From NCBI GenBank assembly GCA_016872055.1, contig VHBH01000004.1, forward strand, positions 45,530-77,529: a DNA stretch of 32,000 bases. Reading direction: 5' to 3'. The notes beneath the pieces are model-generated. The model worked only from the letters and a program-made list of their open reading frames with translations. It ran no database searches and had not been told where the DNA came from. Made by a program: the position numbers and the translations under genes. The DNA is from Nitrososphaerota archaeon. Its GTDB lineage: Archaea > Thermoproteota > Nitrososphaeria > Nitrososphaerales > Nitrosopumilaceae. Numbering within the stretch: position 1 is the first letter of the stretch; each line of letters begins with the position of its first letter. This document shows, piece by piece, positions 5,566-27,136 of the stretch.

Positions 5566-6952
5566 TTACGCTGTCTTCTAGATAGTCCAAAAACCCATCA
5601 AGCTTGTCTTTTTTGATTTTTGCTCCTGCTGCCGCGTCATGCCCTCCTCCAATTCCATTGAATTTCTCTGCACCTAATTTCATCAGGGCAGAAAGGTTAA
5701 CCTCGGTTTTACAGCCAATTGATTTTCGTGATGAAAACTTGATCGTGTTTTCCTCGCCATTTGTTCGAAGTATGATGATCTTGCCTGCGTTTTTTGGCGA
5801 GCCGGCAAGCAGTGATGATATTGTCCCTGTCATGGTCTCTGGAATCACTCCCTCACCGTTTACCATCACGCATTTTGCAGAATCGCTGATCCGCCACCGC
5901 TCATTTGTTAAAATATTCATGTAATCCCGGATGAGTTTTCTGTATTCCAACAGGATGTTTTCTCCTTCTTGGAGCATCTTGTTTCTATCTCCCATACATA
6001 TTGCAATTCCAACCCCGGACCTACCAATTCTTCCACAAGAGTTCAACATTGTAGAGAATTCTCTGGCATCGCGCAAAAAACTTCGTCGCTCTTCTGCTGG
6101 GAATGTGTATGTGTGACCAATTAACTCCTCCATGATATGGCTGGCGTTTTGCGAGCTGGCGAACTTTGTAATGGATTCAATTATAGTGCGTTTTTCGTCC
6201 TCTGCAAGATCTGATGGGGTTCGCCATCTTCCACCGTCCTTGAGCTCAATCCCTGATGACTTGAAAAGAGCAAGACTTGCATCCCTATTCCAGGTCAATC
6301 CTTCAATGAACGGCTGCGAGGTAAACGCCAGAGCATCAACTAGTGGCCTCGTCTCTCTACCAACCAAAAGCAAGTCCATGTCGACTTGGAGTCCACCAAT
6401 GTTTTTCGCCTCTTCTACTACTTCGAGATTTTTGCCCAAAAACGACTTTTTCTCTCCTTGGTCTTGCCTGTCGCCTAGGGCGGAAACTACTGCAATTGGT
6501 GCAAGGTCAGAGTTTCTCTTGTCTAGTGCTTTTGCAGCCAAAAATGCCATGCCTCCAGCACAGATCTCGGTTCCGCCATTGACTCCATACTTCCAAGCGT
6601 TTATCACACAATTATTGTCGTATTCTTCTTGCGGAATTTCATGATGGTCTAGGATAAACCAATTCTGGCCTAGTGCTTCGTCCATCTGATTTGCAAATCC
6701 TCCACCCAAGTCGGTTACAATGTGAAAATCGCGAGAGTCTGACTGCATGTTTTTGATGACTGCTTGACTCATCTCTTTTGTGGTACGTACAGTTACCTTG
6801 GCGCCTGCTCGAATCAGCGCTTTTGTCATAATGGCCCCAGATGTTAGACCATCACAATCGATATGGGTTACAACACAAATGTCCTTGTTGCTTTTGATGA
6901 GGTCGAAAATTATGTCGCTAAAATTTGATAAATGCTGATCGAGGTTACCCAT
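5534..6952 (-). CDS. DHH/DHHA1 phosphoesterase, archaeal RecJ/Cdc45-like (GAN-type) nuclease
   Basis: The DHH motif I is THIDCDGLTSG, with DHH-like LDHH and the DHHA1 motif GGGHDAAAG near the C-terminus. Its ATG overlaps the uS15 stop by 1 nt (TAATG). Confidence 0.8.
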   Translation of the reverse strand: MGNLDQHLSNFSDIIFDLIKSNKDICVVTHIDCDGLTSGAIMTKALIRAGAKVTVRTTKEMSQAVIKNMQSDSRDFHIVTDLGGGFANQMDEALGQNWFILDHHEIPQEEYDNNCVINAWKYGVNGGTEICAGGMAFLAAKALDKRNSDLAPIAVVSALGDRQDQGEKKSFLGKNLEVVEEAKNIGGLQVDMDLLLVGRETRPLVDALAFTSQPFIEGLTWNRDASLALFKSSGIELKDGGRWRTPSDLAEDEKRTIIESITKFASSQNASHIMEELIGHTYTFPAEERRSFLRDAREFSTMLNSCGRIGRSGVGIAICMGDRNKMLQEGENILLEYRKLIRDYMNILTNERWRISDSAKCVMVNGEGVIPETMTGTISSLLAGSPKNAGKIIILRTNGEENTIKFSSRKSIGCKTEVNLSALMKLGAEKFNGIGGGHDAAAGAKIKKDKLDGFLDYLEDSVNGNHSKNNNR

Positions 6953-7401
6953 TATTCAAGTTGGGCTACGACTGACTTATATTTCCAGTTTTGTGGGATT
7001 GCGCCGATCTTTTTGTAGTATGTGGCAATTCGATGAACCTTTGCCTCTACCAGCTCAAGTGATCTGACGTTTCTTTTGTCCGAGTTGTTGTTTTTGAGGT
7101 GTCTTTGCAGGTTGATTGCCTTTTTGACTATATTGTTGAGGTCTTCTGGAATGTCTTGCTTGACATTGTTTTCTTCGAGAATCTTTTTGACTGATTTTTT
7201 TGTAATTGTCTTTGCAAGCGGTATTGCATGCTGGTCTCGAAGCTTTATTCCAATTTGAGCCATAGGAACGCCGTCTTTGCCATACTTTACAACTAGTTCC
7301 TCCACTTCTTTTGCGCTAGTTGTAACCCAAGATGGTGAACGTTGGTTTATTGGTCTTGTAGAGTGTGATTGACCATGTCTGTGGGTGTGTACACGTCCCA
7401 T
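6952..7401 (-). CDS. rps15: 30S ribosomal protein uS15 (S13e/S15P)
   Basis: MGRVHTHRHGQSHSTRP... is the canonical archaeal uS15 N-terminus. I moved the start from the track's 7446 to ATG 7401 because TATA GTTTATGT (7424-7431) lies 23 nt upstream of 7401. Confidence 0.9.
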   Translation of the reverse strand: MGRVHTHRHGQSHSTRPINQRSPSWVTTSAKEVEELVVKYGKDGVPMAQIGIKLRDQHAIPLAKTITKKSVKKILEENNVKQDIPEDLNNIVKKAINLQRHLKNNNSDKRNVRSLELVEAKVHRIATYYKKIGAIPQNWKYKSVVAQLE

Positions 7402-7513
7402 GTCGGCTTTGATCCTAGAACTAACATAAACGTTACCACAAAACAATTCTCAGAAATGATGATTAGAAAAAAGTTAAATAGAAACCATAGCCCCCAACAC
7501 ACAGGTAAACAAT

Positions 7514-7843
7514 ATGAGTAAAGCACTATTCGGAACAGCAATTATTGCTGTAGCCGTAATCTCGATGGGAATGACAGCACCAGCATTTGCCCAATACATG
7601 GGTAATGTTGATTCTGAATCTGGCGCGACAGGCAGTAACACTCTCGAAGAAGCCCTAAAACTTCAAAAAGAACGTGTTACATCTGCAGCCGAAAACCCAG
7701 CTACAGGTTCTGGCACTCCATACCTAGCAGCTGACGGTGTCTTGGGAGCCTCTGCAATTGCAGCAGCCGTATTTGGAGGAATTGCCGCGGCATTTTTCTT
7801 CAAATCAAGAACCGGAAGATATGCAGCTCAAGGAAGAGGGTAA
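7514..7843 (+). CDS. Small secreted or membrane-anchored protein; candidate accessory AMO component
   Basis: It is 109 aa with a signal peptide ending APAFA-Q, a Gly/Ser/Thr/Ala-rich linker and a C-terminal TM helix (ASAIAAAVFGGIAAAFFF) followed by basic residues. It has its own TATA (GTTAAATA, 7473-7480) and a T-rich terminator. Confidence 0.7.
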   Translation: MSKALFGTAIIAVAVISMGMTAPAFAQYMGNVDSESGATGSNTLEEALKLQKERVTSAAENPATGSGTPYLAADGVLGASAIAAAVFGGIAAAFFFKSRTGRYAAQGRG

Positions 7844-7955
7844 ACCCACTTCTATTTTTCCATTTTATTGAATCATTCCTAGCGACAAGCGATCAGCATC
7901 CATCCATGAGTATCAGAGAAATGTATATATCGCACATGAGGCGGTCATTAGTTTA

Positions 7956-8225
7956 ATGACTCCATTATTCGGTACAGTGTTCAGTATTCTGTCTACCGTA
8001 TTTGGACAATTGGGACCAGGTTATGACCCATTGTTCTATGATGTCATGGTATACATCTTCGGCACAATAATGTTTACCGTATTCCTCTTGGGAATTATTG
8101 CATATTGGCTAAGAGTCCATGGCTGGTCATACAAAGACAACCGTGAAAGATGGGTTGACGAACTAGACAGACACTTTGAAAGAGAAGGTATCGGTTTGAT
8201 ACCAGACAACGGAAAGTACTGGTAA
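7956..8225 (+). CDS. Small two-helix membrane protein; candidate accessory AMO component
   Basis: It is 89 aa with two hydrophobic segments (LFGTVFSILSTVFGQL and VMVYIFGTIMFTVFLLGIIAYWL) and a charged C-terminal tail. TATA GTATATAT (7923-7930) lies about 25 nt upstream. Its terminator, AACCTCTTTTTTCATTATTTTT, resembles those of the amo genes. Confidence 0.7.
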   Translation: MTPLFGTVFSILSTVFGQLGPGYDPLFYDVMVYIFGTIMFTVFLLGIIAYWLRVHGWSYKDNRERWVDELDRHFEREGIGLIPDNGKYW

Positions 8226-8287
8226 AACCTCTTTTTTCATTATTTTTAAATTTCTTTTAACTTAGGGTCTATATCTGACCTAGACAT

Positions 8288-8824
8288 TTATTGCGGTGGA
8301 GCAAAGTCTCGCTCACTTGCCTCGTCGTAGCCTTTTGTATAGAACTCGATTTTATAGTGAGCACCGCTGACTAGGGGCTCTCTAATGTAATAGGGCGACT
8401 CACTACCGTCTACATATACTTTGGACTTTGATTCGTCCATATCTCTCATCGGAAAGCCATTTTCGTGGTATGTAGTCCAAGTCCATAGGAAATGCCCTAC
8501 CTCAAACGGGTATTCCTGCTTCCACTCTGCATGGATCGTACCATCGTTTGTCAAAGTATACAATGAATGCCTACAATTCTCATTGTTTCCAATGTTTGCT
8601 GGAATCTCTATTTTCTGCTTGTCCACGTATAGTTCCAAGGTTGTAGAGATCTTGTATTTGGATTCAATGTCATTGATGCATACCCTCAGTGGATTGTCCA
8701 TGTTCATCCACTGCTGGATGAATATGCTGGCGGTTCCAACAGATATGGCAATTACTCCCGTAATTATCAGGTAGCGTATGGTGCCCTTTCTTTTGGCAGG
8801 ATTGCCCAAGCCAGGCCAATTCAT
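8288..8824 (-). CDS. Membrane-anchored extracytoplasmic protein of unknown function, immediately downstream of amoB
   Basis: It is 178 aa with an N-terminal TM anchor (YLIITGVIAISVGTASIFI). The beta-rich ectodomain has two Cys (RVCIND, NENCRHS) and several His/Trp clusters (IHAEW, GHFLWTW, YHENG). I recognise no family. Confidence 0.7.
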   Translation of the reverse strand: MNWPGLGNPAKRKGTIRYLIITGVIAISVGTASIFIQQWMNMDNPLRVCINDIESKYKISTTLELYVDKQKIEIPANIGNNENCRHSLYTLTNDGTIHAEWKQEYPFEVGHFLWTWTTYHENGFPMRDMDESKSKVYVDGSESPYYIREPLVSGAHYKIEFYTKGYDEASERDFAPPQ

Positions 8825-8902
8825 AGTCCAGACTTGATTCCTATAGGATAAAGTCGTTTCTCTGAGTCAATATAATAAAATGAAAAGAGAGGGTTTGTTG
8901 GT

Positions 8903-9469
8903 TTAGATTACTTGCCAGGGGCGAGTTGCGAATGTTATCACATAGCCAACGCCAATGATGATTGATTGATACATGATGTTGGTGTATGGAATTGCTTTTA
9001 GTATCGGCTCGCCGGTTACTACTACTGTTTGTCCTGGGCCTAATCCTGGTCCAACTTGAGCAACGTTGAGTTGAGTGTGTACGTGGTATACGCCTGGCTC
9101 TAATGCCTTTGCTCTGATTTCATAATCGAGTACGGCGTTACCTGGGATTTGAAAGACGTTTCCTGGTGGGGTTCTTGCAAGAATCTCCCATCTGTTACCT
9201 GCATTGGTGGACTCTGAGAATATAGAGTTCCAACCTCTGAGATCTCTTTCAACAAGACTTACGAACTTGCCAGCTAAGACTAGTTCTTCACCGGTTTGCA
9301 GTGATTGTCTGTTGAAGGTTTCATCTTCAATCTTTACGAAACGACTCTGTAGTTGTGCTTGAACACCGTGTGCCTCTGCAGTCTGTACCATTTGAACCAA
9401 ATTTGGACCAAGTGTACCGAGTGCCAAAATTACACTAAGTGCTAGTACGATTGTTTTCTTGTCGACCAT
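8903..9469 (-). CDS. amoB: Ammonia monooxygenase subunit B (archaeal type)
   Basis: The 188-aa protein is recognisably thaumarchaeal AmoB. Its signal peptide ends AEA-HG, leaving an N-terminal His as in PmoB/AmoB copper sites. It has a cupredoxin-like body and a C-terminal TM helix. Confidence 0.95.
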   Translation of the reverse strand: MVDKKTIVLALSVILALGTLGPNLVQMVQTAEAHGVQAQLQSRFVKIEDETFNRQSLQTGEELVLAGKFVSLVERDLRGWNSIFSESTNAGNRWEILARTPPGNVFQIPGNAVLDYEIRAKALEPGVYHVHTQLNVAQVGPGLGPGQTVVVTGEPILKAIPYTNIMYQSIIIGVGYVITFATRPWQVI

Positions 9470-9548
9470 AGTTATCCCGTTAATTAATCATCGACCCACA
9501 TAGAATGATATATGTTTTACCGTTTTAATCAGTAGTGAAAGTTAATAC

Positions 9549-9569
9549 GATCAATCCATGGTATTGATC
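9549..9569. promoter_or_regulatory. Inverted repeat GATCAAT-N7-ATTGATC in the amoB/amoC divergent intergenic region
   Basis: GATCAAT (9549-9555) and ATTGATC (9563-9569) are perfect reverse complements. The spacer contains the palindrome CCATGG. Each arm carries a GATC. Confidence 0.5.
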
Positions 9570-9578
9570 TAATTGTTA

Positions 9579-9598
9579 AACATCAATGTTGAACATTG
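9579..9598. promoter_or_regulatory. Overlapping palindromes AACAT-CA-ATGTT-G-AACAT-TG (includes the perfect 7-1-7 palindrome CAATGTTGAACATTG)
   Basis: CAATGTT (9584-9590) and AACATTG (9592-9598) are perfect reverse complements. AACAT (9579-9583) also pairs with ATGTT (9586-9590). Confidence 0.5.
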
Positions 9599-9720
9599 GA
9601 AATATGGATTTTTGTACCTATAAAAATTCTTATTTCAAGTATTTATCATATAATTCTAATACATATTATCAGTAATTTTTATAAAAATTTCAATAAAACT
9701 GGCTAAAAATAAACTCATGT

Positions 9721-9728
9721 TTTATATA
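9721..9728 (+). promoter_or_regulatory. amoC TATA box (TTTATATA)
   Basis: It lies 23 nt upstream of the amoC ATG at 9751. This spacing recurs across the window and implies a leaderless transcript. Confidence 0.7.
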
Positions 9729-9750
9729 TTGAAAATTACCATTCTGTGTC

Positions 9751-10314
9751 ATGGCACAGATGCCGGCACTAATCCCAAAAGAAGTTGAGATTCAGAGACT
9801 AAAGAAAATCTGGCTCATCGTTATTGCAATGGGATCCACAGCAGCATCCGTGGAAGTAGACAACTTCGTAGATGGTTCCTTACATCAAACCTCTATCAGA
9901 GACTCTGCATTCACACCAGCACACTGGTGGCTCTACTCACACTTTGTGGCACTACCACTAGGTTGGGGTTCAGTTGCAATCTATGATAGAAAGGTACCAG
10001 TACTCAGAGGTCCAAACAACTCCATGAACACAGGCTTAAAGATGACCATTCTAGGTTACCTGGCAACCATGTTCACAATCGGGGTCAATGAAATGTGGCA
10101 CTTCTGGTTCGTAGAGGAAATCTTCGCAGTTCCAAACCACTGGATGTTCAACATGGGTGTAGTAGTAGCATTCATGGGTGCTCTAGCATACGTCGTAAGA
10201 GTCTATGCTAGACTTGTCGAACTAGGTGCAGAAACACCAGGTGAGAACCCATATGTTGCAGAAATGTACAAGATGGCCTTAGAAGGCAAACTGTACAGTA
10301 GAGCAATCCCATAA
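9751..10314 (+). CDS. amoC: Ammonia monooxygenase subunit C (archaeal type)
   Basis: The 187-aa polytopic membrane protein (MAQMPALIPKEVEIQRLKKIW...HWWLYSHF...) is recognisably thaumarchaeal AmoC. Confidence 0.95.
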   Translation: MAQMPALIPKEVEIQRLKKIWLIVIAMGSTAASVEVDNFVDGSLHQTSIRDSAFTPAHWWLYSHFVALPLGWGSVAIYDRKVPVLRGPNNSMNTGLKMTILGYLATMFTIGVNEMWHFWFVEEIFAVPNHWMFNMGVVVAFMGALAYVVRVYARLVELGAETPGENPYVAEMYKMALEGKLYSRAIP

Positions 10315-10339
10315 AACTCTCTTTTTCTCTTTATTTTTC
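10315..10339 (+). terminator. amoC oligo-T terminator (AACTCTCTTTTTCTCTTTATTTTTC)
   Basis: Two T5 tracts lie directly after the stop codon. Archaeal termination uses oligo-T signals. Confidence 0.6.
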
Positions 10340-10371
10340 AAGATCGACTCAGCCCGACATTTTAAGAAAGA

Positions 10372-10379
10372 CTTAAAAG
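10372..10379 (+). promoter_or_regulatory. amoX TATA-like box (CTTAAAAG)
   Basis: It lies 24 nt upstream of the amoX ATG at 10403. Confidence 0.5.
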
Positions 10380-10402
10380 CCAACTATCGATTACAATTTC
10401 AA

Positions 10403-10768
10403 ATGACTCTACCAAAAGGATTTGGTTCAGGCGGCGGCTCCGGCGGAGCATCAAGTGCCGATGTAGAGAAGATGATTGGCAGACGTGTAGAAAACATGAC
10501 TGGCATAATCACCCTTTCGTATATTGCAGCTTGGCTAGCGACCTTTGCCGGAACAGCAGTTGGATATTTCTATTATCCATGGGCTTATCCAACACCAAGC
10601 GGTCACTATGCATTCATAGTCCTGACAATCATCGAAGCAATTGGCTATCTCTTCTGTGTTAAAGTAATGGAAGAAGGTACCAAGAAGAAGAGCAATGCAA
10701 TTGTAGGTGCAACATTAGGCGCAACCGCTGTTGGAACAGTTTTCATCGCCATGTTCATCGGAACATAG
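10403..10768 (+). CDS. amoX: AmoX, small membrane protein conserved between amoC and amoA in archaeal ammonia oxidisers
   Basis: It is 121 aa with a Gly/Ser-rich N-terminus and hydrophobic helices. It occupies the canonical position between amoC and amoA. Confidence 0.85.
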   Translation: MTLPKGFGSGGGSGGASSADVEKMIGRRVENMTGIITLSYIAAWLATFAGTAVGYFYYPWAYPTPSGHYAFIVLTIIEAIGYLFCVKVMEEGTKKKSNAIVGATLGATAVGTVFIAMFIGT

Positions 10769-10781
10769 ACAAGTTCCTCAA

Positions 10782-10802
10782 CTTTTTCCTATTTTCATTT
10801 TT
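10782..10802 (+). terminator. amoX oligo-T terminator
   Basis: T tracts at 10783-10787, 10792-10795 and 10798-10802 follow the stop codon. Confidence 0.5.
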
Positions 10803-10860
10803 AAATTCTCTCTAGGCATTCCTGATCGCGCCGTTTACTATGCCGATAATTGTCTAAAAT

Positions 10861-10868
10861 TTTATATA
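10861..10868 (+). promoter_or_regulatory. amoA TATA box (TTTATATA, preceded by an A-rich BRE-like AAAA)
   Basis: It lies 24 nt upstream of ATG 10892. The octamer is identical to the amoC TATA box. Confidence 0.7.
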
Positions 10869-10891
10869 CTCACCACTGCCCTAACCGGTTA

Positions 10892-11542
10892 ATGGTCTGG
10901 CTTAGACGATGTACGCACTACTTATTCATAGTAGTCGTAGCAGTCAACTCAACCCTGCTTACAATTAACGCAGGAGACTACATCTTCTACACTGACTGGG
11001 CATGGACTTCGTTTGTCGTGTTCTCAATATCACAGACATTGATGTTGGTGGTAGGTGCAACTTACTATCTGACATTTACCGGAGTTCCAGGAACCGCAAC
11101 ATACTACGCGCTGATTATGACCGTCTATACATGGATCGCAAAAGGCGCATGGTTTGCACTCGGTTACCCATATGACTTCATTGTTACACCAGTTTGGTTA
11201 CCATCAGCAATGCTGATTGACCTAGCATACTGGGCTACAAAGAAGAACAAGCACTCACTGATACTATTCGGTGGTGTGATGTGTGGAATGTCACTTCCAT
11301 TGTTCAACATGGTAAATCTCATTACCGTGGCTGATCCATTGGAGACTGCTTTCAAATACCCAAGACCAACATTGCCTCCATACATGACTCCAATAGAACC
11401 CCAAGTGGGCAAGTTCTATAACAGTCCAGTTGCACTCGGTGCAGGCGCAGGTGCTGTATTATCAGTAACTTTTGCCGCTCTAGGATGTAAACTGAACACG
11501 TGGACGTATAGATGGATGGCAGCTTGGTCCAAGTGGGACTAA
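10892..11542 (+). CDS. amoA: Ammonia monooxygenase subunit A (archaeal type)
   Basis: MVWLRRCTHYLFIVVVAVNSTLLTINAGDYIFYTDWAWTSF... is the canonical 216-aa thaumarchaeal AmoA. The track start (TTG at 10850) lies upstream of the TATA box, so I reject it. Confidence 0.95.
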   Translation: MVWLRRCTHYLFIVVVAVNSTLLTINAGDYIFYTDWAWTSFVVFSISQTLMLVVGATYYLTFTGVPGTATYYALIMTVYTWIAKGAWFALGYPYDFIVTPVWLPSAMLIDLAYWATKKNKHSLILFGGVMCGMSLPLFNMVNLITVADPLETAFKYPRPTLPPYMTPIEPQVGKFYNSPVALGAGAGAVLSVTFAALGCKLNTWTYRWMAAWSKWD

Positions 11543-11550
11543 AATCCTAC

Positions 11551-11578
11551 AACTCTCTTTTCTCTTGTTTTTTATTTT
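11551..11578 (+). terminator. amoA oligo-T terminator (AACTCTCTTTTCTCTTGTTTTTTATTTT)
   Basis: A pyrimidine-rich stretch with T4, T6 and T4 tracts starts 9 nt after the stop. It shares the AACTCTCTTTT core with the amoC terminator. Confidence 0.6.
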
Positions 11579-11670
11579 GTCTTGCCAAGAGGCTTGATTA
11601 ACAAATATTGTACATCTTGTGATCTTTTGTTGTCTTGTATCGGGATATGATTTGGTAGAATCTTGTATTA

Positions 11671-12525
11671 TTGAGCCAGCACCAGATACTCTCAGCAGAA
11701 CCCAAGCCATTTGTCAAGTGGGCGGGAGGAAAAAGGCAACTAATCTCTGCAATTGACAGGCATATCCCGTCTGAATTTTGCACATATTTTGAGCCGTTTT
11801 TGGGAGGTGGGGCTGTACTATTCCATTTATTGAGCAAAAATCCTACCATGAAATGCAAAGTCTCTGATTTGAATTCTGACTTGGTCTTGGCTTATGTTAC
11901 AATTCGAGACAAAGTGAACGAGCTGATTTCATCACTGGAAAACCATGCAAAAAACTATCACAAAAATCCAGACTCTTATTATTATTGCATAAGGGAGAGC
12001 GAGCCGACAGGCCAGATTGACAAGGTCTCGCGATTACTATTCCTCAATAGGACCTGCTTTAATGGACTGTATCGAGTAAACAGCAAGGGAAAGTTCAATG
12101 TACCGCTTGGCAGATATTCCAATCCAAACATTGTAAATGAGGAAAACCTAGTTACTGTAAGCCATATTTTACAATCAAAAAAAATTCAAATCAACTGTCG
12201 CGACTTTACCGCAATCCTATCGGATGCCAAGAAAGGCGATTTTGTGTACTTTGATCCACCATACCAACCAGTAAGCAATACTGCAAACTTTACCAGCTAT
12301 ACGAATAAGGATTTTACCTATTCTGACTTGGAAAATCTAGTTGAAGTGTCTGAAAAGCTCATAGATAGGGGCTGCAAGGTTTTGCACTCCAATTCTAATT
12401 CTAAGGAAGTAAAAGACCTATTCTCAAAGAACTGGAAGGTAATCGAGGTTGCTGCCAATAGAGCCATAAACTCGGATTCTGCAAAAAGGACAGGCCAAAA
12501 GGAACTACTCATCAAAAATTATTAG
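11671..12525 (+). CDS. dam: Dam-family (D12 class) N6-adenine DNA methyltransferase, orphan
   Basis: Its motifs are KWAGGKRQL, the SAM motif EPFLGGGAV, NRTCFNGLYRVNSKGKFNVPLG and the catalytic DPPY. TTG at 11671 is the only possible start after the in-frame TAG at 11656. No nuclease gene is adjacent. Confidence 0.85.
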   Translation: MSQHQILSAEPKPFVKWAGGKRQLISAIDRHIPSEFCTYFEPFLGGGAVLFHLLSKNPTMKCKVSDLNSDLVLAYVTIRDKVNELISSLENHAKNYHKNPDSYYYCIRESEPTGQIDKVSRLLFLNRTCFNGLYRVNSKGKFNVPLGRYSNPNIVNEENLVTVSHILQSKKIQINCRDFTAILSDAKKGDFVYFDPPYQPVSNTANFTSYTNKDFTYSDLENLVEVSEKLIDRGCKVLHSNSNSKEVKDLFSKNWKVIEVAANRAINSDSAKRTGQKELLIKNY

Positions 12526-12529
12526 AATG

Positions 12530-12603
12530 AGCTTCGAACGGGATCCGAACCCGCGACCTTTACCTTACCAAGGTAACGCTCTACCAGGCTGAGCTATCGA
12601 AGC
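12530..12603 (-). tRNA. tRNA-Thr (GGU)
   Basis: Hand-folded cloverleaf: acceptor GCTTCGA/TCGAAGC, D arm GCTC...GAGC, anticodon stem TTACC/GGTAA with loop TTGGTAA, and T arm GCGGG TTCGGAT CCCGT. TATA TATAATTA (12629-12636) lies 26 nt upstream. The 3' end is 5 nt from the dam stop. Confidence 0.85.
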
Positions 12604-14209: not shown

Positions 14210-14303
14210 TGGTGGGCCGAGAGAGATTCGAACTCTCGACCTTTCGATGTCTGAAAGATTATTTTATCAGTCGAACGCTCCAGCCAAGCTGAGCTACCGG
14301 CCC
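14210..14303 (-). tRNA. tRNA-Ile (GAU) with a 16-nt canonical intron (about 14249-14264) and genomically encoded CCA
   Basis: The reverse complement reads GGGCCGGTAGCTCAGCTTGGCTGGAGCGTTCGACTGATA[AAATAATCTTTCAGAC]ATCGAAAGGTCGAGAGTTCGAATCTCTCTCGGCCCACCA. The anticodon loop is CTGATAA. TATA CTTTTAAG (14326-14333) lies 23 nt upstream. Confidence 0.85.
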
Positions 14304-14978: not shown

Positions 14979-15050
14979 GGGCTGATAGTTCAGGGGTAGA
15001 ATGCTCGCCTTGCACGCGAGAGGTCAGGGGTTCAAATCCCCTTCAGTCCA
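14979..15050 (+). tRNA. tRNA-Ala (UGC)
   Basis: The acceptor GGGCTGA/TCAGTCC includes the G3:U70 alanine identity pair. The anticodon stem is CTCGC/GCGAG with loop CTTGCAC, and the T arm is AGGGG TTCAAAT CCCCT. TATA ATTAAAAT (14947-14954) lies 25 nt upstream. Confidence 0.9.
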
Positions 15051-26983: not shown

Positions 26984-27136
26984 TGGGGCCGACCGGAGTT
27001 GAACCGGCGATCTACAGGTCACTGCAGCTCCAAACTCACATCATCTTGTGAAATCAGTTTGGATTGTATTACTTCTGGAGCCTCTAGCGATGACTTTGTC
27101 AATCATAGTCGCCTTACCAGGCTGGGCTACGACCCC
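26984..27136 (-). tRNA. tRNA-Trp (CCA) with two introns: 24 nt in the anticodon stem (about 27084-27107) and 55 nt at 37/38 (about 27020-27074)
   Basis: After removing the inserts, the reverse complement gives GGGGTCG TA GCCCAGCCTGGTAAGGC G ACAGG CTCCAGA CCTGT AGATC GCCGG TTCAACT CCGGT CGGCCCC A. TATA AATAAATC (27161-27168) lies 25 nt upstream. The 3' end is 3 nt from the aconitase stop. Intron boundaries are uncertain by a few nt. Confidence 0.75.

Follow-up and report, generated by a model that had tools for sequence, protein, structure and literature searches.

Do the three small genes that adjoin the AMO genes in the window, the whole 32,000-nucleotide stretch of DNA analysed here, encode further parts of the same enzyme? 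The first-pass annotation had described an extended AMO locus of seven genes, and all seven open reading frames were found where it had placed them (Table 1). The gene order in the window is methyltransferase-amoA-amoX-amoC-amoB-178aa-89aa-109aa-rpS15-DHH. We hold with good confidence that the block from 7514 to 11542 represents the AMO gene cluster of a Nitrosotenuis-like archaeon, complete and of the Nitrosopumilaceae type, in which the 89-aa protein is AmoY, the 109-aa protein AmoZ and the 178-aa protein very probably AmoE. The block is real, yet already explained, as AmoY and AmoZ are published and an AmoE was reported in 2026.

Table 1. Features of the AMO block, in window coordinates.
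Feature	Position	Strand	Details and basis
amoZ (AmoG in 2026 preprint)	7514..7843	+	109 aa; ORF, hydropathy, N. cloacae match
T-rich tract after amoZ (CTTCTATTTTTCCATTTTATT)	7844..7872	+	sequence
TATA-like element (ATGTATATAT), 26 nt upstream of amoY ATG	7921..7930	+	read from sequence
amoY (AmoF in 2026 preprint)	7956..8225	+	89 aa; ORF, N. cloacae match, structure model, hydropathy
T-rich terminator-like tract after amoY (AACCTCTTTTTTCATTATTTTT)	8226..8262	+	sequence
178-aa single-pass membrane protein, probable Nmar_1505 orthologue	8288..8824	-	ORF, alignment, structure model, synteny
T-rich terminator-like tract after amoB (ACCCTCTCTTTTCATTTTATTATATT)	8868..8902	-	read from sequence; function inferred
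amoB	8903..9469	-	188 aa; N-terminal cupredoxin domain and C-terminal membrane helix; Pfam Monooxygenase_B, NCBIfam AmoB
amoC	9751..10314	+	187 aa; Pfam AmoC, E 1.1e-13
T-rich terminator-like tract after amoC (AACTCTCTTTTTCTCTTTATTTTT)	10315..10342	+	sequence
amoX (AmoD in 2026 preprint)	10403..10768	+	121 aa; conserved position between amoC and amoA
amoA	10892..11542	+	216 aa from ATG at 10892; Pfam Archaeal_AmoA, E 2.2e-117
T-rich terminator-like tract after amoA (CAACTCTCTTTTCTCTTGTTTTTTATTTT)	11543..11582	+	sequence

Pfam and NCBIfam confirmed amoA, amoB and amoC; no family of either collection matched the amoX, 178-aa, 89-aa or 109-aa products. The mechanically called amoA reading frame opens at a TTG at position 10850; the biological start is the ATG listed in Table 1, and amoA of Ca. 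Nitrosotenuis cloacae likewise encodes 216 aa. Across related loci amoC was 93–100% identical. The hydropathy profile of AmoX contained three hydrophobic segments (residues 35–53, 67–90 and 98–121), and three helices are described for this subunit in the cryo-EM preprint on the N. maritimus AMO, which reports eight subunits per protomer (Yang et al., September 2026, bioRxiv 10.64898/2026.08.31.748207, PDB 9XJ2). AmoA, AmoB and AmoC would form the copper-dependent catalytic core of the enzyme, and AmoX would contribute three membrane helices.

The two smallest proteins were assigned by comparison with Ca. N. cloacae, whose gene order is identical to that of the window. For this organism, Hodgskiss et al. 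2023 (ISME J, PMC10030591) give in their Table S16 the tags SU86_RS02080 for amoB, SU86_RS02070 for amoY and SU86_RS02065 for amoZ, amoY and amoZ being the second and third genes after amoB, with a single gene between amoB and amoY; in N. maritimus they are the third and fourth. The other published AmoY/AmoZ tags are NVIE_004540/NVIE_004550 and Nmar_1506/Nmar_1507. The window was matched to the N. cloacae tags by gene order and by tag numbers spaced in steps of five. The 89-aa protein was 98% identical to the 89-aa product of the N. cloacae gene at the amoY position and the 109-aa protein 88% identical to the 109-aa product at the amoZ position. Both had been proposed as possible counterparts of AmoY and AmoZ, and they are AmoY and AmoZ, respectively. 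The status of the two as AMO subunits is backed by BN-PAGE co-migration, cross-links and co-expression (PMC10030591), a proposal that left the 178-aa gene aside. The cryo-EM preprint includes AmoY as AmoF and AmoZ as AmoG, together with a new cluster-encoded single-helix protein, AmoE; in N. maritimus the AmoF-AmoG pair acts as a clamp between neighbouring protomers and holds the trimer together (10.64898/2026.08.31.748207).

Using amoB as anchor, we collected 80 related Nitrosopumilaceae loci, from Nitrosotenuis, Nitrosopelagicus, Nitrosopumilus and Nitrosarchaeum, and found the same order across them; amoZ was present in at least 67 of the 80. A Nitrososphaeraceae genome retains the arrangement DHH-rpS15-105aa-92aa. 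Its 92-aa protein (P0188) is 54% identical to AmoY of the window (E 2e-36), and the 105-aa product of the gene upstream is 34% identical to AmoZ (E 2e-11). All three small genes are under purifying selection (pN/pS 0.07–0.27, with amoY at 0.07 and amoZ at 0.27), and the mean column identity of the amoY alignment was 73%. The description of the block as an extended AMO locus is therefore supported by synteny beside amoB, which is kept in at least four genera, by the Table S16 assignment and by the high identities to N. cloacae. What is established for the window itself is that the genes are real, and their topology, homology, synteny and selection; physical membership of the proteins in the AMO enzyme would carry over from the literature on other species, namely N. 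viennensis, N. cavascurensis and N. maritimus.

AmoY had been described as a two-helix membrane protein. It is a membrane protein, but the structure model and hydropathy revealed one true membrane segment rather than two (residues 25–55, pLDDT >90): the N-terminal helix 3–17 is amphipathic, with a hydropathy under the membrane threshold, and the C-terminal helix 60–77 is cytoplasmic. For AmoZ the predicted signal peptide and C-terminal membrane anchor were borne out by hydrophobic segments at residues 1–27, ending AFA|QY, and 72–98. This pattern fits a signal peptide with a cleavage site close to AFA|QY, then a short outer segment that is helical, a membrane helix towards the C-terminus and, in the cytoplasm, a basic tail. 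Both proteins are single-pass; the N-terminus faces outward, and the C-terminus, which is charged, lies in the cytoplasm. Together they would take the place of AmoB's second domain and helix, both absent in archaea.

The motif CTCTYTTT occurred 10 times in the window, compared with about 5 expected occurrences, and four of these sites stood directly after the stop codons of amoY, amoB, amoC and amoA. Comparable T-rich tracts were found 3' of amoX and amoZ, so that the terminator style which amoY and amoZ had been said to share with the amo genes is indeed present. A run of at least five T within 40 nt of the stop codon was detected in 60 of 74 orthologous amoY loci. No T-rich terminator followed the 178-aa gene, neither in the window nor in any of 41 orthologues. 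The TATA-like element of amoY, as read from the sequence, is similar to those of the TTTATATA type that lie upstream of amoA and amoC; a sigma-70 promoter scan is not applicable to archaea. Upstream of the 178-aa gene there is a single TATA-like element, which lies within the tract that follows amoB. Synonymous divergence was unusually low in amoA, amoB and amoC as well as in amoX, amoY and amoZ (pS 0.13–0.37, compared with 0.6–0.86 in flanking genes). In the 178-aa gene it was saturated, as in ordinary flanking genes.

The 178-aa gene, for which no strand had been given before, lies on the minus strand. Its product had been called a membrane-anchored ectodomain protein, in agreement with one hydrophobic segment (residues 16–38) followed by a confidently modelled domain (mean pLDDT 81.9 overall, above 90 in the domain). 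A conserved cytoplasmic N-terminus (M-WPGxGxPxKRK) precedes the membrane helix, and the outer domain of about 135 aa carries C49 and C84, both invariant in the family alignment. The model suggests a disulfide-bonded, beta-grasp-like domain. All 102 clusters of homologues are named "hypothetical". The gene has a fixed place between amoB and amoY in 80 loci and still adjoins amoY-amoZ where amoB lies 11 genes off. In Nitrosopumilus loci two genes separate amoB from amoY, one encoding a soluble acidic protein of 94–104 aa (Nmar_1504 type) and the other the 178-aa homologue; the Nmar_1504-type gene of the N. maritimus cluster has no neighbouring counterpart in the window. Nmar_1504 was excluded from the AMO complex (10.64898/2026.08.31.748207), which leaves the 178-aa homologue as AmoE. 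The preprint names no locus tag for AmoE, but in the N. maritimus cluster Nmar_1505 alone is left unassigned, and the 178-aa gene occupies the Nmar_1505 position. By this elimination and by its matching architecture, the 178-aa protein is very probably AmoE, and the link to AMO proposed for it is probably right too. According to the preprint, AmoE is confined to marine lineages, but the 178-aa family was found in non-marine Nitrosotenuis and also on a contig with a Nitrosotalea-type arrangement.

It is highly improbable that chance placed the three small genes next to amo, as unrelated neighbours encoding membrane proteins. None of the three gave a Pfam, NCBIfam or PDB sequence match, and all bear the database name "hypothetical protein", as such neighbours might. 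However, synteny and the literature already contradict this explanation: the order is kept throughout the loci collected, the amoZ-amoY adjacency reaches into the Nitrososphaeraceae, proteomic and structural evidence is published for AmoY and AmoZ, and both share with the amo genes their terminator and synonymous-site signatures.

Less easily dismissed, but still unlikely, is an explanation that accepts AmoY and AmoZ and takes the 178-aa protein for an independent outer-face membrane protein merely kept beside amoYZ, not a stoichiometric AMO subunit; it might, for instance, serve in metal handling or assembly and derive from a metal-binding family rich in histidine. The missing terminator style and the saturated synonymous divergence, which suggests much lower expression, are in line with it, as are faster protein evolution (52–88% identity in related loci, compared with 77–100% for other amo proteins) and the failure to find the gene next to amoYZ in the single Nitrososphaeraceae locus examined. 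A profile search of 1.84 billion proteins with the 178-aa family yielded 502 relatives at E <=0.001; those inspected, about a dozen, were membrane-anchored, mostly with HxH and HTHD motifs. One histidine-rich relative is encoded 4 bp downstream of genes for a CopA-type P-type ATPase and for a protein that matches HMA, DsbD_2 and cupredoxin. This context comes from three contigs of identical gene content, probably one organism, however, and CopA-type neighbours were absent at P0425 and P0394, the other two distant relatives checked. Moreover, most of the histidines seen in the wider family are gone from the archaeal proteins, and the preprint builds a cluster-encoded single-helix AmoE, for which Nmar_1505 is the one gene left, into the N. 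maritimus complex. As AmoE, the 178-aa protein would be an accessory subunit at the periphery of the enzyme, restricted to certain lineages and with a single membrane helix near its N-terminus. It may be made at lower, ordinary levels, and its gene is possibly transcribed by read-through of the amoB terminator.

New here is that the 178-aa gene is not marine-specific, that it keeps its place by amoYZ where amoB lies apart and that, unlike the six other amo genes, it combines saturated synonymous divergence with the lack of the shared T-rich terminator. Also new is the relationship of its outer domain to a wider membrane-anchored family, compared with which it is depleted in histidine and one member of which adjoins the CopA-type ATPase. 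That unnamed family, without a Pfam entry (P0420, P0425 and P0430, for example, with profile E-values of 1e-8 to 1e-14), has in common with the 178-aa proteins an N-terminal anchor, a domain of about 120 aa and a set of invariant residues, namely the two cysteines, P75, G79, T90 and G95, with H98 nearly so; the C-x-N-H, HxH and HTHD motifs are lost in the amo-linked archaeal proteins. The distant relatives with inspected gene contexts, namely P0394, P0420, P0425 and P0392, do not adjoin amo genes.

The published AmoY and AmoZ and the pair in the window agree in size, single membrane helix, position of amoZ upstream of amoY and the rpS15 and amoB neighbourhood. They belong to the same family, in sister species, and show no difference of substance. 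A disulfide is modelled in N. viennensis AmoZ, whereas the 109-aa protein has no cysteine, which counts against its reading as AmoZ. According to an April 2026 review, amoD/pmoD has no known homologue in AOA. In bacteria, AmoD, AmoE and PmoD are copper proteins of cupredoxin-like type whose genes follow amoB or pmoB. They resemble the 178-aa protein in the gene position directly after amoB, the single membrane pass and the outer domain, and bacterial AmoE shares its name with the archaeal AmoE of the preprint. No sequence or fold similarity between the 178-aa protein and these proteins was found, and Foldseek against the PDB returned only weak beta-grasp matches for its model (E >=0.016). The 178-aa protein is anchored near its N-terminus, in contrast to PmoD, whose helix is C-terminal and which has a CuA-type site.

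All seven open reading frames which the first-pass annotation had assigned to an extended AMO locus were recovered in the ORF listing exactly where it had placed them. No family was assigned in Pfam and NCBIfam scans to amoX and the three small proteins adjoining the amo genes. For the three small proteins these scans returned sub-threshold noise alone (FixQ, DUF4179 and a Na/Ca exchanger). PDB sequence searches with the three small proteins, amoX and amoA yielded nothing relevant. Because even the amoA query remained without a match, the PDB copy searched holds no archaeal AMO structure. An Rfam scan revealed no RNA families inside the block (7514-11542). The result of a scan for sigma-70 promoters and hairpin terminators matched the shuffled expectation. 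Since this model is not applicable to archaea, archaeal TATA-like and T-tract elements were read directly from the sequence.

Genes of the extended amo locus in the window
Gene	Position	Strand	Length	Evidence
109-aa gene (amoZ)	7514-7843	+	109 aa	ORF listing
89-aa gene (amoY)	7956-8225	+	89 aa	ORF listing
178-aa gene	8288-8824	-	178 aa	ORF listing
amoB	8903-9469	-	188 aa	ORF listing, Pfam/NCBIfam
amoC	9751-10314	+	187 aa	ORF listing, Pfam/NCBIfam
amoX	10403-10768	+	121 aa	ORF listing
amoA	10892-11542	+	216 aa	ORF listing, ATG start at 10892; Pfam (E 2.2e-117)/NCBIfam

The gene order was compared in 80 loci from GTDB species genomes which were anchored on amoB and in which the genes were mapped by tblastn. 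The first-pass annotation had asked for amo-linked synteny to be checked, and the comparison revealed one common order, methyltransferase-amoA-amoX-amoC-amoB-178-89-109-rpS15-DHH, across four genera (Nitrosotenuis, Nitrosopelagicus, Nitrosopumilus and Nitrosarchaeum). For Ca. Nitrosotenuis cloacae (CP011097.2) gene order and gene lengths match the window exactly. A 'Thaumarchaeota' MAG encodes a protein 100% identical to the 178-aa protein, and N. cloacae WP_048187067.1 matches the latter at 88% identity. Rearrangements are rare among the loci. In a Cenarchaeum-type genome (L064:12197-14511) the convergent pair of the 178-aa and 89-aa genes is inverted as a unit and split from amoZ, and insertions of 1.2-1.9 kb were observed between amoY and amoZ in one locus (L075:11647-14148) and between the 178-aa gene and amoY in another (L034:11016-13051).

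The methyltransferase is a D12-class adenine methyltransferase of 284 aa (11671-12525, + strand, in the window) which directly follows amoA in almost every one of the 80 loci. Its family, Pfam MethyltransfD12, was assigned in the N. cloacae orthologue, and its orientation is reversed in several Nitrosopumilus loci (e.g. L044, L045, L053 and L060). Outside the block four tRNA genes were found at 12529-12603 (-), 14210-14303 (-), 14979-15050 (+) and 26984-27136 (-). A tRNA-Thr(GGT) gene abuts the methyltransferase stop codon. Two of the four, with 91-94 nt and 153 nt, are longer than usual and are likely to carry introns; one of these was unassignable by ARAGORN, the other was missed by ARAGORN and found by Rfam only.

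AmoY (NVIE_004540, Nmar_1506) and AmoZ (NVIE_004550, Nmar_1507) have been proposed as AMO subunits on the basis of BN-PAGE co-migration, cross-linking, co-expression and synteny (Hodgskiss et al. 2023, PMC10030591). According to this study amoYZ lie 1-2 genes away from amoABCX in most Nitrosopumilaceae. Its Table S16 lists amoA (RS02095), amoX (RS02090), amoC (RS02085), amoB (RS02080), amoY (RS02070) and amoZ (RS02065) for N. cloacae, and amoB (RS08065), amoY (RS08080) and amoZ (RS08085) for N. maritimus. As these tags run in steps of five, the number of genes separating amoB from amoY is one in N. cloacae and two in N. maritimus. Both counts agree with the loci seen here, the match to the tags being a positional one. 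The N. cloacae gene at the amoY position, likewise of 89 aa and by gene order and tag spacing SU86_RS02070, encodes a product with 98% identity to the 89-aa protein. The 109-aa gene is located on the same strand directly upstream of amoY, at a distance of 112 bp, and is orthologous to the designated amoZ; its product is 88% identical to that of the N. cloacae gene in the amoZ position (SU86_RS02065). Homologues of the 89-aa protein were found in Nitrosotalea-named MAGs (~69% identity) and as a 92-aa protein in a Nitrososphaeraceae MAG (54%, E 2e-36), so that the family is conserved across the AOA orders represented by these genomes. The Nitrososphaeraceae MAG retains the order DHH-rpS15-105aa-92aa. 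Its 105-aa protein aligns with the 109-aa protein over the full length (34% identity, E 2e-11) and has the same layout of signal peptide, helix and anchor. Because the Table S16 positions, the identities and the Nitrososphaeraceae pair agree, the 89-aa protein can be assigned as AmoY and the 109-aa protein as AmoZ; the first-pass annotation had considered the two proteins plausible counterparts of the proposed extra subunits.

The architecture of both proteins was analyzed by hydropathy, alignment and structure prediction. Two hydrophobic segments of the 109-aa protein, 1-27 (AFA/QY) and 72-98, correspond to the signal peptide and the C-terminal anchor claimed for it beforehand. Together with the alignment they give the AmoZ layout of signal peptide, short helical outer domain and C-terminal membrane helix; the segment LEEALKLQKERV aligns with the Nitrososphaeraceae homologue. 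The AmoZ model of N. viennensis contains a disulfide in the soluble domain, and the 109-aa sequence is free of cysteine. This is no bar to AmoZ membership, since the disulfide is a trait of one modelled species and not a family definition. Hydropathy analysis of the 89-aa protein revealed one segment (25-56). Its AlphaFold model shows a membrane helix at 25-55 (pLDDT >90) which is flanked by an amphipathic N-terminal helix (3-17) and a C-terminal helix (60-77). The two-helix description given initially for this protein thus holds only in part. Size and topology are those of AmoY, i.e. ~90 aa with a single membrane helix. The aligned family exhibits a mean column identity of 73% and the motif GQxGPxYDPLFYDVMxYIFG. 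In other species, the presence of AmoY in the AMO complex is supported by BN-PAGE and cross-links (PMC10030591) and by a cryo-EM preprint (10.64898/2026.08.31.748207).

That preprint, from September 2026, reports the structure of AMO from N. maritimus at 2.88 Å (PDB 9XJ2), in which each protomer comprises eight subunits. Its cluster figure labels AmoA-AmoG and leaves out Nmar_1504, which is described as a soluble beta-barrel outside the complex; no locus tag is given there for AmoE. The 178-aa gene occupies the amoB-amoY interval in the 80 loci and fits the AmoE position. Its modelled product, an N-terminal helix followed by a confident ~135-aa domain without a PDB match, also fits the AmoE description. 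In Nitrosopumilus sp. b1 two genes fill the interval from amoB to amoY, a 176-aa homologue of the 178-aa protein and an acidic, soluble ORF (94-104 aa). Of the 56 non-Nitrosotenuis loci (L025-L080), 54 carry such an ORF of the Nmar_1504 type between amoB and the 178-aa homologue (exceptions L073 and L077). None of the Nitrosotenuis loci contains it, nor does the window, in which amoB and the 178-aa gene are 78 bp apart (8825-8902). A homology of the 178-aa protein to Nmar_1504 itself was rejected, as in Nitrosopumilus loci this slot is taken by a separate soluble ORF of ~94 aa, which the window lacks. With the soluble ORF taken as the Nmar_1504 type one intervening gene is left, and by elimination in the N. 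maritimus cluster the 178-aa family is very probably Nmar_1505 and hence AmoE. A literature search on Nmar_1505 found no paper naming it. In locus L032 (10639-10953) the Nmar_1504-type ORF carries neither a signal peptide nor a membrane segment. As read there, the lack of both fits poorly with the periplasmic role proposed for this protein in the preprint. The extended locus suggested in the first-pass annotation is supported; it consists of the known amo genes, the AmoY and AmoZ genes published in 2022/23 and a third gene which is very probably that of the 2026 AmoE.

The preprint (10.64898/2026.08.31.748207) describes AmoE as restricted to marine AOA lineages. This restriction was not borne out by the loci compared here. 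The 178-aa family is present in the Nitrosotenuis loci L001-L024, including N. cloacae and N. chungbukensis, wherever the region is covered (L020 ends after amoB), and also on a contig with a Nitrosotalea-type arrangement. The marine restriction looks like a statement about sampling and not like a defining feature. On the Nitrosotalea-type contig amoB is separated from the rest by 11 genes, among them Amt and P-II, and the 178-aa homologue still adjoins amoY-amoZ-rpS15. This contig and the jointly inverted 178/89 pair of the Cenarchaeum-type locus demonstrate that the 178-aa gene is linked to amoYZ and not to amoB. The amoZ-amoY pair itself adjoins rpS15 and a DHH-family protein gene in Nitrosopumilaceae (window 6952-8225), and in two further loci (L081:4842-6279 and L086:8187-9423), the Nitrosotalea-type contig and that from Nitrososphaeraceae being among those compared; its linkage to rpS15/DHH is older and more stable than that to amoABCX. 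Beside amoYZ in the single Nitrososphaeraceae locus examined the 178-aa gene was not found.

The 178-aa gene also differs from the six other amo genes in its divergence and its flanking signals. In comparison with close Nitrosotenuis relatives (L002-L024) the synonymous divergence (pS) was 0.13-0.37 for amoA, B, C, X, Y and Z, whereas the 178-aa gene reached 0.69-0.86, the same level as rpS15, DHH and the methyltransferase (0.6-0.86) and 2-4 times that of the six genes. Because a gene of high pS sits here among genes of low pS, the low values are gene-specific, and they are probably due to a codon constraint linked to expression and not to a sweep of the region. The stop codons of the six genes are followed, in the window and across genera, by T-rich tracts of the CTCT(C)TTTT...TTTTATT type. 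Their occurrence after both the 109-aa and the 89-aa gene upholds the amo terminator style noted for these two at the outset. By contrast, this motif was found in none of 41 orthologues of the 178-aa gene, and a run of five T in 2 of 41. The 178-aa family evolves faster at the protein level (52-88% identity in the related loci versus 77-100% for amoA, amoB and amoC) and is under purifying selection. Taken together, linkage, synonymous divergence, terminators, protein evolution and selection suggest that the 178-aa protein is an accessory component which is less abundant and confined to certain lineages.

When 49 homologues of the 178-aa protein were aligned, the cytoplasmic N-terminus proved conserved, C49 and C84 invariant and H111 nearly so. 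In the AlphaFold model (mean pLDDT 81.9, domain >90) a long N-terminal helix leads into a beta-rich domain with one helix. A Foldseek search against the PDB gave weak beta-grasp matches alone (best E 0.016, none at E <=0.001), with neither a cupredoxin nor a PmoD-like protein among them. In a profile search of 1.84 billion representatives 502 proteins were found at E <=0.001. The distant relatives inspected (about a dozen) possess an N-terminal anchor and the same two cysteines and belong to no Pfam family. C-x-N-H, HxH and HTHD motifs occur in most of them and have been lost from the archaeal amo-linked proteins.

Several of these relatives have distinct architectures. The N-terminal region of P0392 (L093:2874-3575) is plastocyanin/cupredoxin-like with a weak Pfam Cupredoxin_1 match (E 0.14), P0488 is extended at its C-terminus by a region which weakly matches multicopper oxidases (Cu-oxidase_2, E 0.043), and P0383 is a 380-aa fusion whose N-terminal part is of no recognised kind. 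Pfam matches of the fusion partners were weak only, including ThiS (E 0.063), and were not used as evidence. P0394 (L085:3726-4205; 159 aa) is a full-length relative with 31% identity to the 178-aa protein and the same N-terminal tail and anchor; its contig has a GC content of 42%, AhpC/Redoxin and CBS-domain genes adjoin, and no amo genes are nearby.

The gene for the histidine-rich relative P0420 is located 4 bp downstream of that for a CopA-type P-type ATPase (L088-L090: 490-4510, three contigs of identical gene content which probably represent one organism). The gene upstream of the ATPase encodes a protein with HMA, DsbD_2 and cupredoxin matches. This context hints that the family at large may take part in copper handling; nothing comparable was found in the other distant-relative contexts checked. 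A more far-reaching scenario would be that the 178-aa protein is a histidine-depleted offshoot of a broad, unnamed copper-handling family of the outer face whose members are anchored in the membrane and contain a disulfide, recruited to amoYZ in the Nitrosopumilales ancestor and not only in marine lineages, which serves AMO as a low-abundance assembly or copper-delivery factor and not as a purely structural subunit. We consider this combination unlikely.

Much of global nitrification is driven by archaeal AMO, an enzyme whose subunit composition had long been unsettled. The question posed by the window has already been answered by the publication of AmoY and AmoZ in 2023 and by the 2026 cryo-EM preprint, which places them in one structure together with the cluster-encoded AmoE. 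Bacterial AmoD, AmoE and PmoD contain a cupredoxin-like copper domain, whereas the 178-aa protein, very probably the archaeal AmoE, gave no such match in Pfam, NCBIfam and Foldseek. The block in the window is no new kind of system, as its biology is published, with AmoY and AmoZ tabulated for the sister species. Its residual value lies in modest new points on the 178-aa gene: an AmoE-type gene which also occurs outside the marine lineages, is linked to amoYZ, shows none of the expression-linked signatures found in the other six and is distantly related to histidine-rich proteins. They are relevant to whether AmoE is a core subunit of the known complex or an accessory factor.
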